Notes: generated by a model from the letters alone, not told the origin. A stretch of DNA of 64,000 nt from Methanothrix sp. (GCA_963682135.1 OY821645.1:128001-192000); one strand, 5' to 3'. Shown: positions 34,349 through 41,948, numbered from the stretch's first letter. Made by a program: numbers and translations.

Positions 34349-37300
34349 TCATTCATTCATCCTCCAATCCACAAAAACGGATTTAACGAGATAATTTAAT
34401 TTAAATTCTGCTAATATCTTGAAATAATAAGGTTCTCCATAAATTATATCATCAAAATTAGTTCTTATTGACGAAAAAATATCATCAAACTGCTCTTGAT
34501 CTTTTACATGCAATTCAATTTTTACTTCCCATTTTCCCGTGCAGAATATGATATGGAATATTTGCAAATAGTTTGACATAAATTTCATAAAATTATCTTT
34601 TTCCTTTTTCGATAATTTTTTTAATCTTAAGAGGATTATGTACCATTCAAGTCCTAGAGCCCTAATATCGCATACGGGCATTAGTCCTATAATTATATCT
34701 TTTGATTTCAAGTCATACACTATATCGGCTAGTCTCTTGACATCTAATTCAAATTCTGACGAAAAATTTAATTGATAATATTGTTCAAATTCCGAAATTC
34801 TTAAAAGCATCTTGTACTCTTCATTATGGATATAGCTATATGCCTTTTCTTCAAGCGGTATTCTATATTCTCGATATGAGAAATCTGTTTCTTTTTTCCC
34901 AGATGTAAACAGATATCTTTGGCCAAAGAAATATTCGTCGATTAACCAAAGCATCTCATAATCTTTTAATTTATCTTGGCAAATTTCCTTTATTTGCATC
35001 ATTATTTCATTGTAATGATGCATGCTCTTAGCGAAAATAGCGATTAGATACGTCCATTGACTAACTCCACCAATGGATGCTATCCATGGTATTGCTTGAT
35101 GATTCATAAGCCCTTCGAGAATATGATTTTGAGTTTTTTTATCTATTATATCTATTGATAAAAATACATTAAAGCTAATTAGACCAAATCTACTGATATT
35201 GATAATTGGGACAAACTTATCCAAAAATCCGCGACTATGAAGGTCCTTTATCCTCTGTTTTATTACAAACTCATCAATATGTAATTTTTTCCCTATAATT
35301 TTAGGAGTTTGAGGCATTCCCTCCTTCCATGCTTCCCTCCATATTTCCTCTAAAATTATTGACTCCTGCTGGCTAAGATTTGCAGGAAGATTCTCAGATT
35401 TCCTGAATCTCACATTGCTGTTATAATTGACAAAATTAGCTTTTTTTCCCCATTTATCCAATATAATATCGATTTGATCTATAAGAATATTTCCAAGCGT
35501 AATCTCTTCGACATATTCGCCATTATCTTCAGGAATTATCACATCTCCATTCGGCTGAATAATGAAGTAGGACCTATCCCTTTCCTTTCGCCTTGAAACA
35601 ACTATCTGAAACGGTGATTGCCCTTTAAGATTACTGCGGAAATCCTGAATGGTATTTGTGAATGTGCTTTCCAGATATCCGCATCGTATCATGTTTAAAC
35701 GTGCCCCTGCTTCTGGGATAAGTTCGTATATCTTCCAAAGGTCAATTGAATATTTTGCTAATAGATTATAAATATTTAGTAGATTGTTGCGCACATTGAT
35801 GTTTTTGGATGTCAACAATGTACATACTCTTATTTGAAATGGTCTTGCATACTGTTGATAGTAATCTAGAATTGAAAGAACGTTCTTATAGTTATTTTCC
35901 CTTCCATTTTCTGAATGAATTTCATTTGTCGATCCGTCAAGAGATAGAGAAAGCCTATTTACATAATGTTCTATAGGCTCTTTATGATTCCAGAAATGTT
36001 CGCCATTGGTAGAAAGACATACTTTGATCCCTTTTTCATAAATATATTTTAGCATTTCGTCAATATATCTATATTTTAACGGTTCACCTCCAGAAATACA
36101 TATTGTTTTTATATATAATCTGTGTAGTATATCAACGACCTTTTTAGCACATTCCAAATCTAAATCAGGTATATTCTTTGGTTTAAAACAACAACGACAT
36201 GCGTAATCGCATTCGGAAGTTATCATCCAATCAACAATTGCTAGTTTATGATCGATATACTGGTCTGGAATATTGTTTTGGAGGCGTCCGCCAACGGAGC
36301 ATTTTTGAAGAATCATATCAGCAATCTGCCTAAGATTTTCTTTGCGGCCATCTAAAAATCCGATAGCCGATGATATGCCCGAAATCTCTGTATTATCAAG
36401 CAGTACGGGAATAACATAATCATACTTTTCTGAAATCGCTCTTGCTTGAGCACATTTTAACTCAAGTTGCGTCCATTTACTTTTTAAATAGTATTTCGAA
36501 ATAAATATAACGCAATAGCGTGCGCGTTCTTTAAAAATCTTTTCAAGTAGGTTGGGCAGATTTTCTCCAACTAGGTTACTCTTTTCATAAAAATCATAGA
36601 ATACATTAATTTTGCCTTGAAGAGCTTTTAAGACATTTTCTACATATGGTCTATCTTCTCTAGCAAAAGAGAAAGCAACATCATACTTAATAGTACTATT
36701 TATTTCGAAATCTGCGAGAAGATTCCAAATCCAAATAGAATTATCATTAGTGCCAAAGACAGCTCGATGACCGTCTGGTGTTATCGCTATACTCGTAAGA
36801 TACTTAGTTGAACCTATACTCTTTACACACTCTCTATTGATAAGATCCCAGATCCGCACTGTTTTATCAAGAGAACTAGTAAGTGCCCAGCGTCCATCTG
36901 AGGTCACAGCTAACCTGATAATCGCATCATTGTGTCCTTCCAGAACAGCTAATCCTTTGCTCGATCGAAAATCCCATAGGCGCACGGTATTATCGCGAGA
37001 ACCAGAGATAATTAATTGCTCATCTGGTGTTATGGCAACACAATCTACTGACCTAGAGTGACCTTCGAGCGTGACGATACATCGGGTAGTCTCCAAATCC
37101 CATACACGAAGGGTTCTGTCTGCAGAAGCAGAAACCACATAACGACCATTTGGCGCTACTGCAACACCGAAAACTGAATCAGTATGCCCCTCGAGAGTGG
37201 CAGCGCACTGAAAGGTCTTCGCATCCCATATCCGTAAAGTCTTATCAAAGGACCCAGAAATTATCCGTTGGCCATCTGGTGTCACAGCAATGCTGCAAAC

Positions 37301-40634: not shown

Positions 40635-41948
40635 CTAATCTCCTAAATATATTTGCGAAATTGCAGCATCTAAACGACTTTTCAATTCAGTCAACTCGTC
40701 GCGTTTTCTTTCATCCAAGGGAGGTAATGGTTTCCCTCCAATGGTATCAAAACGTTTCAAATCATCTGCAGAATTCCCCACTTGTACTAGAAAAATGATC
40801 ATTGGATATCGCTGACGCAGTTCCTTGAGAATCCGCTCTTTGGCGTACTCAAACGGAAGCGCACAGATTGCGACATCGCCTGGCATATGCAATCGTTCCG
40901 CAACAGCCTGAGGAAGATGCAACATATCACCGTCTTCATCATCCAGGGGCTTGAGAATCCTATCTCGAATTGTCCGCTCAATCTGGTGTTTAATTGCATC
41001 ATCGCCTTCGCCAGCACCACCGCTCACAGAAAATGCCCATATCGAACCATTATTATCGTAAATCTCGATCTTTGCCCTATTTAGGTATTCGTCGATTATC
41101 GCTTGCTCTTTTGCATTAACGGTTATGAGTCCAAGTTCTCCAGGCTTACGAGAAGCGCACAGAATGATTTCCATTGTATCGTTCGTGACCCATTTTGCAG
41201 TTAGATACTTTTTGAAGTAATCTGCCTTTTCACGTTTCAATTCACACAAGAGCTCGCGAAATGCTCCAACGCTTTCTATCGAAGGCTTGTGATGCATGAG
41301 TTCCGCAATAGTCTGGCATAGGCAGTACTGCTTGCGATCTCCAAGTTTGTTCCATAAATCTCCTCCGATAGGCGACTCTAACTCTAACTGTTCTGCAGCA
41401 TCCTGCAGAACAATTATGTCAACCGTTCTCATCAAACCAACTACCTGATGGACCCAAGGACTCATCGGTGGTTGTTTAGCTATATTGGGATCTAGATTTG
41501 ATAAAATATCCTCTGCAAACTCTTCAGGTGAACGCGATTTGTCATCCGTGATAACCTGAATTTCCTTCAGTTGAAATGGCTCATATTTTTTAAAACATGT
41601 GTCTTTAAGGCACCTACCATCTAGCAATACTGGAATAATCTGAAAACTTGGATCGATAAATTTGCGGAAGCAAAGGATTAAGGCTTCATCCATTACCCAT
41701 GTTGACTTTGACACTGCCCTCTCGTTAAAAAGAATGATTCCCGCATGCGCTTCAGCGAGATTATGCAGAATCTCCATCCGCCATTTGACTCCAGGGCGGA
41801 TGTTACTATCAATGAAAACGTACCACTTCTTTTCTTCTTCGTCTTCTTTGGACAAAACTGCACATAGGCATTCTTTAAGCTTGACAGAGCGATCCTCTGG
41901 GGGTAATCCGTTCGTCGAATGACTTATAAACAATATTGGTTTGCTCAT
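40635..41948 (-). CDS. TIR-domain protein, first component of the MoxR-vWA operon
   Basis: KPILFISHS, VFID, STWVMDE, IIPVLL; uncharacterised C-terminal ~280 aa. Confidence 0.85.
   Translation of the reverse strand: MSKPILFISHSTNGLPPEDRSVKLKECLCAVLSKEDEEEKKWYVFIDSNIRPGVKWRMEILHNLAEAHAGIILFNERAVSKSTWVMDEALILCFRKFIDPSFQIIPVLLDGRCLKDTCFKKYEPFQLKEIQVITDDKSRSPEEFAEDILSNLDPNIAKQPPMSPWVHQVVGLMRTVDIIVLQDAAEQLELESPIGGDLWNKLGDRKQYCLCQTIAELMHHKPSIESVGAFRELLCELKREKADYFKKYLTAKWVTNDTMEIILCASRKPGELGLITVNAKEQAIIDEYLNRAKIEIYDNNGSIWAFSVSGGAGEGDDAIKHQIERTIRDRILKPLDDEDGDMLHLPQAVAERLHMPGDVAICALPFEYAKERILKELRQRYPMIIFLVQVGNSADDLKRFDTIGGKPLPPLDERKRDELTELKSRLDAAISQIYLGD

Follow-up and report, generated by a model that had tools for sequence, protein, structure and literature searches.

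Why does a methanogenic archaeon carry an operon in which a MoxR-type ATPase and a vWA-like protein stand between two proteins with TIR domains, the second of which also holds a WD40 propeller, a radical SAM domain and two Lrp/AsnC units? This question is raised by four genes on a 64,000-nucleotide stretch of Methanothrix sp. DNA (GCA_963682135.1 OY821645.1:128001-192000), hereafter referred to as the window. The operon is probably, in our judgement, an intact and horizontally acquired MoxR-vWA ternary conflict (anti-invader) system, with the layout of TERNS3 and of a minority of iSTAND systems; this class of system is known, so far by prediction only. Positions are counted from the first letter of the window, and the genes are given in operon order.

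40635-41999, minus strand: gene 1, TIR-headed third component, 454 amino acids
39595-40623, minus strand: gene 2, MoxR-type AAA+ ATPase, 342 amino acids
38580-39542, minus strand: gene 3, vWA-like protein, 320 amino acids, GTG start
34349-38632, minus strand: gene 4, adaptor and effector protein, 1427 amino acids

The listing of open reading frames (ORFs) indicated four intact, co-oriented frames without interruption, running from gene 1 to gene 4. This bears out the tight, uninterrupted arrangement described in an earlier annotation of the window (the sequence-only reading), whose end point at 41948 is Met18 of gene 1, the likely true start; the public protein collection also uses Met18, giving 437 amino acids, and starts gene 4 at Met25, giving 1403 amino acids. 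The spacing is 11 nt between genes 1 and 2 and 52 nt between genes 2 and 3, while genes 3 and 4 either overlap by 53 nt or are separated by about 16-19 nt, depending on the choice of the gene 4 start. All catalytic motifs are intact, including Walker A and B, the metal ion-dependent adhesion site (MIDAS), the Glu of both TIR domains, CxxxCxxC and GGEP. A single 9,295-nt contig in runs X1 and X3 (two studies, one of them possibly the source sample) covers 34111-43405 with 0 differences, and a separate contig from a third run (X4) spans the WD40-TIR junction of gene 4. Because contigs cross every junction with 0 differences, the long gene 4 fusion is no assembly artefact, and an assembly chimera was ruled out. 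A variant operon in run X5 was considered and discarded, since its half share of words was due to fragmentary low-coverage contigs.

The operon is not core in Methanothrix, as its distribution showed. A search with gene 1 among 105 genomes of the family detected only two carriers, the own genome and another Methanothrix species (G043). The MoxR gene was found in one of 41 relatives, the own genome, and in none of the 24 of the same genus. Housekeeping proteins of the flanks cluster at 90% identity with proteins bearing the names Methanothrix or Methanosaeta. The flank formed by the PHP and homoaconitase genes is present in all 31 genomes of the genus, and three congeners were found to match the window at 31867-33853 and at 42373/42614-44774; what lies between has no counterpart at their syntenic site.

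33854-42372, no strand: stretch holding the four genes, absent in 3 of 3 congeners

The constant and variable parts of the system were separated by comparison with G043, which carries the same four genes at a different locus. Protein identity is 79% for TIR-X, 73% for MoxR and 55% for vWA, and residues 5-313 of its fourth protein (1,024 amino acids) are 73% identical to residues 24-332 of gene 4. On the DNA level, 74.6% identity extends over 4,424 nt (37637-41999 of the window) and stops at 37637, the last codon of the adaptor. This end of homology indicates that residues 25-332 are the adaptor of a constant core and that all behind it is exchangeable. The constant core was thus shown to consist of genes 1, 2 and 3 plus the first 332 residues of gene 4. 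Behind the junction, G043 carries a Ras/Roc GTPase (324-485) and a SEFIR-type TIR domain (858-995; PADLOC bSEFIR, 98.8 bits), whereas the protein of the window is built as follows.

37637-38560, minus strand: gene 4 adaptor (vWA-L-like), residues 25-332; no library match, invariant IEPELLRALRL motif
36713-37597, minus strand: gene 4 WD40 beta-propeller, residues 346-640; seven repeats, 245.9 bits, GC content 0.471
36308-36685, minus strand: gene 4 TIR domain, residues 650-775; TIR_2, 56 bits (cut-off 28); start of the AT-rich cassette
35447-36244, minus strand: gene 4 radical SAM domain, residues 797-1062; viperin-related, without SPASM
34352-35380, minus strand: gene 4 Lrp/AsnC tail, residues 1085-1427; two units, each a helix-turn-helix (HTH) and a RAM domain

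The effector part of gene 4 is in its turn a mosaic, made up of two pieces or more. The GC content is 0.444 for the core (0.446 in G043), 0.471 for the WD40 part and 0.323 for the TIR-radical SAM-Lrp part; that of the G043 effector is 0.551. The WD40 propeller was not present in G043 or in the bacterial counterparts of gene 4. Directly upstream of the operon in G043 (L044), a gene for a ThsB-type TIR protein (15553-16050; ThsB_TIR, 99.4 bits) and one for an AlkZ-like glycosylase (16330-17427) were observed, and these neighbours suggest that the locus there, other than that of the window, is a defence island.

The same plan was observed in bacteria. A scan of species-representative genomes for the gene 3 family gave six bacterial loci, one of which (L005) was left out as too short. 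The order TIR-X, MoxR, vWA and large protein is found in a member of Sedimentisphaerales (L004), in Prosthecobacter (L006) and in Desulfuromusa (L007). An alphaproteobacterium (L008) has the vWA and the next domain fused in a protein of 1,223 amino acids, and the more distant Parafrankia locus (L009) reads trypsin-X, MoxR, vWA and kinase-EAD1-TIR. TIR-X precedes MoxR in the window, in G043, and in L004, L006, L007 and L008; the identity of gene 1 to its counterparts at the bacterial loci is 41%, 31% and 23%. Gene 4 residues 34-332 match the N-termini of the large proteins of L004 (41%, E 4e-61) and L006 (37%, E 2e-45). The effectors that follow the adaptor are TIR-NACHT-TPR in L004, TIR-NB-ARC-TPR in L006 and kinase-EAD1-TIR in L009.

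The N-terminus of gene 4, which the sequence-only reading had called helical, is a conserved adaptor predicted to dock on the vWA protein. A complex model of gene 3 with the adaptor gave an interaction score (ipSAE, interaction prediction score from aligned errors) of 0.80, while none of 3 controls exceeded 0.00. Of 80 solved complexes 58 attained this mark, as did 2 of 110 mismatched pairs; with the own alignments (A2 and A5) used here, these numbers are only roughly valid. Between docking runs at least 62% of contacts agreed, and the predicted local distance difference test (pLDDT) score of the partner was at least 79. The confident contacts join vWA residues 188-194 and 250, the MIDAS loop, with gene 4 residues 65-71 (IEPELLRA; E65-A71). 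In the usual binding mode of vWA domains, an acidic residue of the ligand completes the MIDAS site. The docking model is support for, not proof of, binding between gene 3 and the adaptor, with the vWA metal site predicted to bind the acidic IEPELL motif. The fusion of vWA and adaptor in L008 agrees with such a physical link.

Gene 2 carries a Walker A motif, GQPGSGKS (residues 58-65), and a Walker B motif, VVLIDE (170-175), and matches AAA_5 with 44.1 bits. Gene 3 begins with a short helical segment, which is followed by a disordered linker and then by a Rossmann-like domain. In a family of 28 sequences, D184-x-S186-x-S188 and D250 of its MIDAS-type motif are invariant and T243 is nearly so. 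Clusters of VWA_CoxE were found in the ESM Atlas at 0.94. The structural model of gene 3 has a pLDDT of 65 overall and is good for residues 175-320; in a Foldseek search with it, the VWA domain of NorD in the NorQ-NorD complex (9qh8_G) took rank 2.

Gene 1 is divided into two parts.

About 41505-41948, minus strand: gene 1 TIR domain, N-terminal, with Glu105 in W-x-x-x-E
About 40638-41459, minus strand: gene 1 alpha/beta module (X), about 270 residues including the helical region; no library match, no Walker A

The TIR_2 score (PF13676) of gene 1 is 27.7 bits at a cut-off of 28, yet all 29 family members match TIR_2. Glu105 is invariant across the family, as Glu724 of the gene 4 TIR (again in W-x-x-x-E) is in alignment A1, and we take both to be residues of the catalytic type. 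In an AlphaFold2 model built from 29 sequences (pLDDT 85.5), the TIR domain is followed by a helical stretch at 164-272 and by an alpha/beta part at 274-433, and Foldseek matched TIR domains to it at a probability of 1.00. Apart from TIR types, no Pfam family matches more than one of the 29 family members. The X module is the third component of the system. The closest homologue of gene 1 was P0260 (in the cluster of P0038; 78% identical), observed on 33 contigs from five sources, the longest being 95.5 kb, indicating that related systems are not rare in metagenomes.

The ternary class was described by Kaur et al. (2020, eLife 9:e52696; PMC7159879) with VMAP, iSTAND, FtsH and beta-propeller types, and Kaur et al. 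(2021, eLife 10:e70394; PMC8195603) added iSTAND2 and TERNS3, and systems with the vWA-L linker and the effectors in a gene separate from the vWA; statements on these papers refer to the accessible parts of their text. The assignment to this class made by the sequence-only reading has held, as a MoxR gene beside a vWA gene, a 5' TIR-headed third component and variable effectors are all present. Among the types that it had named, the beta-propeller type falls away, and TERNS3 or iSTAND fits by the separate genes for the vWA and for the adaptor with its effector.

In TERNS3, a novel alpha+beta domain forms the third component at the 5' end and is mostly fused straight to TIR, and a split vWA-L gene is the rule, whereas split genes occur in a minority of iSTAND systems, which may also be TIR-fused (PMC8195603). 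In its layout, the operon agrees with TERNS3 in every point. The window shares with TERNS3 the TIR-headed 5' gene, the MoxR gene, the separate vWA gene, the adaptor gene with variable effectors including TIR, and repeats; the distribution of TERNS3 is likewise described as patchy and biased to a multicellular habit (PMC8195603). The hosts named there are mainly cyanobacteria, actinobacteria, chloroflexi and proteobacteria, unlike the methanogenic archaeon of the window, and archaeal cases of ternary systems receive a passing mention only in what is accessible of the two papers (PMC7159879, PMC8195603). Among the TERNS3 effectors described in the accessible text, none holds radical SAM, Lrp/AsnC or a WD40-TIR-radical SAM array (PMC8195603).

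Within the same class, the third component might instead be an inactive STAND NTPase, so that the operon would be an iSTAND or iSTAND2 system with a split adaptor-effector gene and not TERNS3. We regard this as rather unlikely, although it is the strongest of the alternatives. The best full-length Foldseek match of the gene 1 model is the plant TIR-NLR protein RPP1 (7dfv_B; E 1.1e-3), followed by weaker matches to ORC/Cdc6 and ClpB, and the absence of Walker A from all 29 family members would suit an inactive NTPase; nSTAND_NTPase5 was matched weakly by one of the 29 (E 0.0044). The short helical N-terminus of the vWA protein and its VWA_CoxE match in the Atlas correspond to the description of iSTAND, which also shares the TIR-fused third component, a MoxR without VMAP-type extensions and the variable effectors (PMC7159879). 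Fusions of TIR to iSTAND and a minority of split vWA-L genes are on record as well (PMC8195603, PMC7159879). These likenesses are opposed by the mostly TIR-fused third component and the regularly split vWA-L gene of TERNS3 (PMC8195603), and by the usual form of iSTAND, in which the effectors are on the vWA itself and many members are membrane-associated, the third component being an inactive STAND (PMC7159879). The structural match to RPP1 has a very low template modelling (TM) score (0.23). Furthermore, the helical region of gene 1 precedes its alpha/beta part, and this is the reverse of the usual order of STAND modules.

Several observations weigh against the assignment of the operon to the ternary class as a whole. 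Gene 2 scores 22.9 bits on bpMoxR (PF20030), under the cut-off of 27. For gene 3, a search of Pfam, NCBIfam and PADLOC yielded no vWA match, and its 28 homologues have no Pfam match; rank 1 of its Foldseek search was a phosphoribosyltransferase, with TM-scores that are all 0.2-0.4 and hence ambiguous, and a profile of its alignment (A2) gave only spurious matches (spectrin, TIPIN) among PDB sequences. Gene 3 was accepted as a putative vWA-like protein because of its MIDAS motif and gene context. The best structural matches of the X module of gene 1 are weak (E 1e-3, query TM-score (TMq) 0.23). We found no experiment on any TERNS3 or iSTAND system in the literature, all functional steps being inferred; the accessible part of a 2026 preprint reports a test of a related MoxR-vWA sensing pathway in Actinobacteria.

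The beta-propeller type (subsystem 4 of Kaur et al. 2020) is described as having a propeller of about four blades behind the vWA, no conventional effectors, often a GxxxTAKS P-loop, and a third component in which TPR/propeller regions are combined with a membrane segment (PMC7159879). Even though bpMoxR is the sole system-specific Pfam match, reached with 39.7, 32.5 and 32.8 bits by the gene 2 orthologues of L004, L006 and L008, and gene 4 holds a WD40 propeller, this type is most improbable and was rejected on the missed bpMoxR cut-off, a 320-residue vWA protein without propeller and a GQPGSGKS P-loop in place of GxxxTAKS, to which are added the TIR-headed third component, the conventional effectors, bpMoxR matches that span only positions 13-97 of the 205 of the model, and a WD40 part that is missing in G043 and in the bacterial counterparts.

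With a MoxR-vWA ternary system as the preferred reading, we then considered the effector that it would control. The radical SAM domain of gene 4 matches Radical_SAM (PF04055) with 59.6 bits (cut-off 29.5); C808-x3-C812-x2-C815 is invariant in alignment A1, and the motifs GGEP, WK and SY..P.G are present. The Lrp/AsnC signal is weak in gene 4 itself (AsnC_trans_reg, PF01037, 18.6 bits at a cut-off of 25). In homologues of the whole region it reaches 28.8 bits (P0068), 32.4 bits (P0066) and 39.6 bits (P0096, with HTH_24 at 55.2 bits), and both HTH-RAM units are plain in these three proteins.

A word-indexed search with residues 640-1427 detected two standalone TIR-radical SAM-2xLrp proteins, of 784 (46%) and 793 amino acids (41%), and one of these genes sits on a 4.2-kb metagenome contig (L001) with a GC content of 0.34. 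On the same contig, a 149-residue ORF (3376-3825) was observed with its start overlapping the stop of this gene. It gave no match in Pfam, PADLOC or PDB, and may be a partner of the cassette; its identification as a nucleoside deoxyribosyltransferase was an impression by eye that nothing backs, and was dropped.

A HMMER search with residues 790-1427 against 1.84 billion representatives gave 5,893 matches at E<=1e-3, 62 of them at E<=1e-30, and the best 150 were sorted. Among these best 150 of the 5,893 were about twenty radical SAM-2xLrp fusions of 615-675 amino acids, five forms of about 890 amino acids, one form with a C-terminal methyltransferase, and many standalone radical SAM proteins (about 280 amino acids) and tandem Lrp proteins (about 330 amino acids). 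All five of the 890-residue forms (P0069, P0072, P0075, P0080 and P0086) have an N-terminal caspase. Four match Peptidase_C14, and for P0072 the sole caspase evidence is a match to the NCBIfam model 'caspase, EACC1-associated type', on which the two proteins scanned, P0069 (88.6 bits) and P0072 (60.5 bits), are both under the cut-off of 140. TIR-headed radical SAM-2xLrp proteins are P0006, P0007 and P0066, the last being a further such form among the best 150, besides P0007 from the word-indexed search. As side observations, P0071 and P0072 lie on contigs of 152 kb and 63 kb, respectively, and the cluster member listing held no protein names for the radical SAM-Lrp proteins.

Apart from the gene 4 protein, the longest of these best 150 has 901 amino acids or less, so that the vWA-L-WD40-TIR-radical SAM-Lrp architecture appears to be unique among them. 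The earlier statement that this effector architecture is not familiar from any described system stands for these 150 homologues and for the literature found, eLife source data aside. In the phylum of the organism, the cassette was detected in one of 401 genomes, the own one (E 1e-30). Scans with alignment A1 gave 63 pattern matches among genome contigs and 79 among viral contigs, with 0 relatives in both. With P0070 as query, nothing beyond weak matches of the generic radical SAM kind was found in the L004, L006 and L008 genomes, and 401 genomes of the L004 phylum gave 0 matches, the latter result being uninformative for lack of a positive control. The occurrence of the radical SAM-2xLrp module alone, behind TIR and behind caspases is the behaviour of a shared effector of conflict systems.

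How close is this radical SAM domain to viperin? The best family was NF038283 (viperin_w_prok) with 87.5 bits, leading the next family (60 bits) by 27 bits, and the score on PADLOC pVip was 89.3 bits. In PDB, two viperins (6q2p and 5vsl) came first with about 32 bits, MoaA reaching 24 bits. On the viperin model, the gene 4 domain spans positions 3-253, and generic radical SAM enzymes span about 2-195. We also compared alignment columns between 12 canonical archaeal viperins, 22 fused members, 20 standalone relatives and 10 generic controls. The WK motif was kept at 100% and 91%, against 10% and 0% in the controls, and like SY..P.G it is among the extra shared columns.

A close relation to viperin is opposed by other results. 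The score of about 87 bits (87.0 in the genome search) fails the curated cut-off of 180, and generic radical SAM enzymes of the phylum reach 76-105 bits on the same model, the same range, while scores of 186-271 bits are reached by the canonical viperins of the phylum, which occur in 25 of 401 genomes. Of the 73 columns that viperins conserve, no more than 20 are retained in at least 80% of the fused members, compared with 18 in the standalone relatives and 11 in the generic controls. Viperin N12 is replaced by D and H14 by R (M in the gene 4 protein), and the C-terminal viperin motif Y..RGG.Y is missing. In the ESM Atlas, the closest clusters are fusions of the radical SAM-NirDL type (0.93 and 0.91), neighbours that suggest a link to tetrapyrroles rather than to nucleotides. 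As judged from these alignments, the domain probably represents a sister family of viperin with a different substrate or product. It resembles pVip (NF038283, PADLOC pVip) in length class, absence of SPASM, CxxxCxxC-F, GGEP, WK and SY..P.G, and differs by its fusion to TIR and two Lrp units, its score under the family cut-off and the absence of Y..RGG.Y. In the literature, no viperin-like radical SAM protein fused to Lrp/AsnC, TIR or caspase was found, though eLife source data might list one.

The tetrapyrrole link leads to an explanation of the whole operon as housekeeping, in which a MoxR-vWA chaperone of the CoxD-CoxE or NorQ-NorD kind would serve the maturation of a metalloenzyme or tetrapyrrole enzyme, and the radical SAM-2xLrp part would be a biosynthetic enzyme similar to Ahb/NirJ-NirDL. 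NirJ, AhbC and AhbD with NirDL or AhbAB indeed combine radical SAM with tandem Lrp-fold units, and the nearest Atlas clusters, carrying Radical_SAM, AsnC_trans_reg2 and NirdL-like_HTH, are so built. NCBIfam AhbA gives 44-61 bits on cassette relatives, level with Lrp regulators, and AhbD is among the next-best radical SAM families. In NorQ-NorD, CoxD-CoxE and RavA-ViaA, too, a MoxR gene adjoins a vWA protein with a MIDAS site, and gene 3 matched the NorD domain by Foldseek. Unlike NirJ, AhbC and AhbD, gene 4 has no SPASM and no haem operon context, and its C-terminus has no match to AsnC_trans_reg2 or NirdL-like_HTH at E up to 1; viperin is its best radical SAM family, by the lead given above. 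Those chaperone pairs are conserved and insert metals or cofactors into housekeeping enzymes, whereas the pair in the window is mobile, TIR-linked and provided with swappable effectors. Two TIR domains are encoded in the operon, which is missing in 103 of the 105 family genomes and at the syntenic site of congeners, a Roc GTPase-TIR effector replaces the radical SAM cassette in G043, and the bacterial counterparts carry NACHT, NB-ARC or EAD1. On the TIR domains, the patchy occurrence and the effector swap, the housekeeping explanation was rejected as highly unlikely. The TIR, caspase and MoxR-vWA contexts speak against a housekeeping role, while the substrate of the enzyme may still be a tetrapyrrole.

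For the preferred reading as a MoxR-vWA ternary conflict system, the following sequence of events may be envisaged. The TIR-headed third component would sense infection, oligomerise, and make or consume a molecule derived from nicotinamide adenine dinucleotide (NAD). Going by the families concerned, the MoxR ATPase would use ATP to remodel the contact between vWA and adaptor, setting a threshold. The effector chain, once released or assembled, would consume NAD+ through its own TIR domain, and the radical SAM enzyme would probably make a modified nucleotide or another small molecule, not necessarily the viperin-type 3'-deoxy-3',4'-didehydro nucleotide (ddhNTP). The WD40 propeller could serve as a surface for target binding or assembly, and for the two Lrp/AsnC units a role in binding DNA or a small ligand, and in the control or multimerisation of the enzyme, may be supposed. 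The cells of Methanothrix form sheathed filaments, in which an infected cell would be expected to stop growing or to die. The roles given in the sequence-only reading, with WD40 as sensor, MoxR/vWA as gate, and TIR and radical SAM as outputs, are likewise inferred.

A wider proposal, which we put forward tentatively and hold to be possible rather than probable, is that radical SAM-2xLrp proteins form an unrecognised antiviral effector family, sister to viperins, with a product other than ddhNTP and with gating of the enzyme through HTH-RAM by invader DNA or a small molecule, possibly a TIR product. The module would be exchanged as a unit between the TIR, caspase (EACC1-type) and MoxR-vWA systems of both bacteria and archaea. 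In the two-gene EACC1-caspase systems, as far as the accessible text describes them, a variable C-terminal position behind the caspase exists, and this is the position held by the cassette relatives (PMC7159879). The window differs from these systems in having no caspase and no EACC1 gene, the cassette being the only link.

The surroundings of the operon had been described by the sequence-only reading as a repeat-bounded island full of toxin-antitoxin remnants. The 122-nt repeat is real, and a PIN gene, a UPF0175 gene and riboflavin-kinase fragments adjoin the operon. The repeat is older than the insertion, so that the island is not bounded by it in that sense: a congener (G015) carries the same duplication of the PHP gene 3' end without the operon, which indicates that the repeat predates the insertion and is no mark of it.

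31867-31988, no strand: duplicated PHP gene 3' end, repeated directly at 42647-42768 (122 nt, 86%)

Other features of the flanks were also noted. A direct repeat of 210 nt (83%) at 32030-32239 and 33423-33632 overlaps fragments of a gene for CTP-dependent riboflavin kinase, and the flank of the operon is rearranged relative to the congeners. Just downstream of gene 4, at 33957-34300, short multi-copy elements are located, at which contig depth rises to hundreds-thousands over a baseline of about 50-270; pieces of this segment match 28 other places in the own genome, some of them paired at a distance of about 600 nt, as the two ends of a small mobile element would be. Between the PHP and homoaconitase genes, at 43310-43437, lies a repeat of 50-130 nt with many copies in nearly every genome of the genus, which may be an element similar to miniature inverted-repeat transposable elements. 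A protein of 623 amino acids (44751-46622) is conserved in Methanothrix and goes by different names in the sources, being called ATP-citrate lyase, citrate synthase or succinyl-CoA synthetase alpha subunit.

As compared with the literature searched, eLife source data aside, what appears to be new from these sequence comparisons is the archaeal host, the replacement of one effector by another at an exact point in two congeners, the effector built of WD40, TIR, radical SAM and 2xLrp, and the putative viperin-related radical SAM-2xLrp module recurring behind TIR and caspase. MoxR-vWA ternary systems are a large predicted class of immunity and cell-death systems on which experimental work is almost nil. 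The two Methanothrix species represent a natural experiment, in which a shared core is followed by effectors that diverge from one exact junction, defining the boundary of the adaptor. The locus also gives a concrete, testable and model-based prediction of docking, in which the IEPELL motif of the adaptor contacts the MIDAS loop of vWA. The radical SAM-2xLrp module is a candidate for a new small-molecule antiviral effector, and if an antiviral family of this kind is true, the operon would be the first case of a MoxR-vWA gate over an antiviral enzyme producing a small molecule. Methanothrix species are key acetate-using methanogens of digesters and wetlands, and for this reason their defence against viruses is of both ecological and practical interest.

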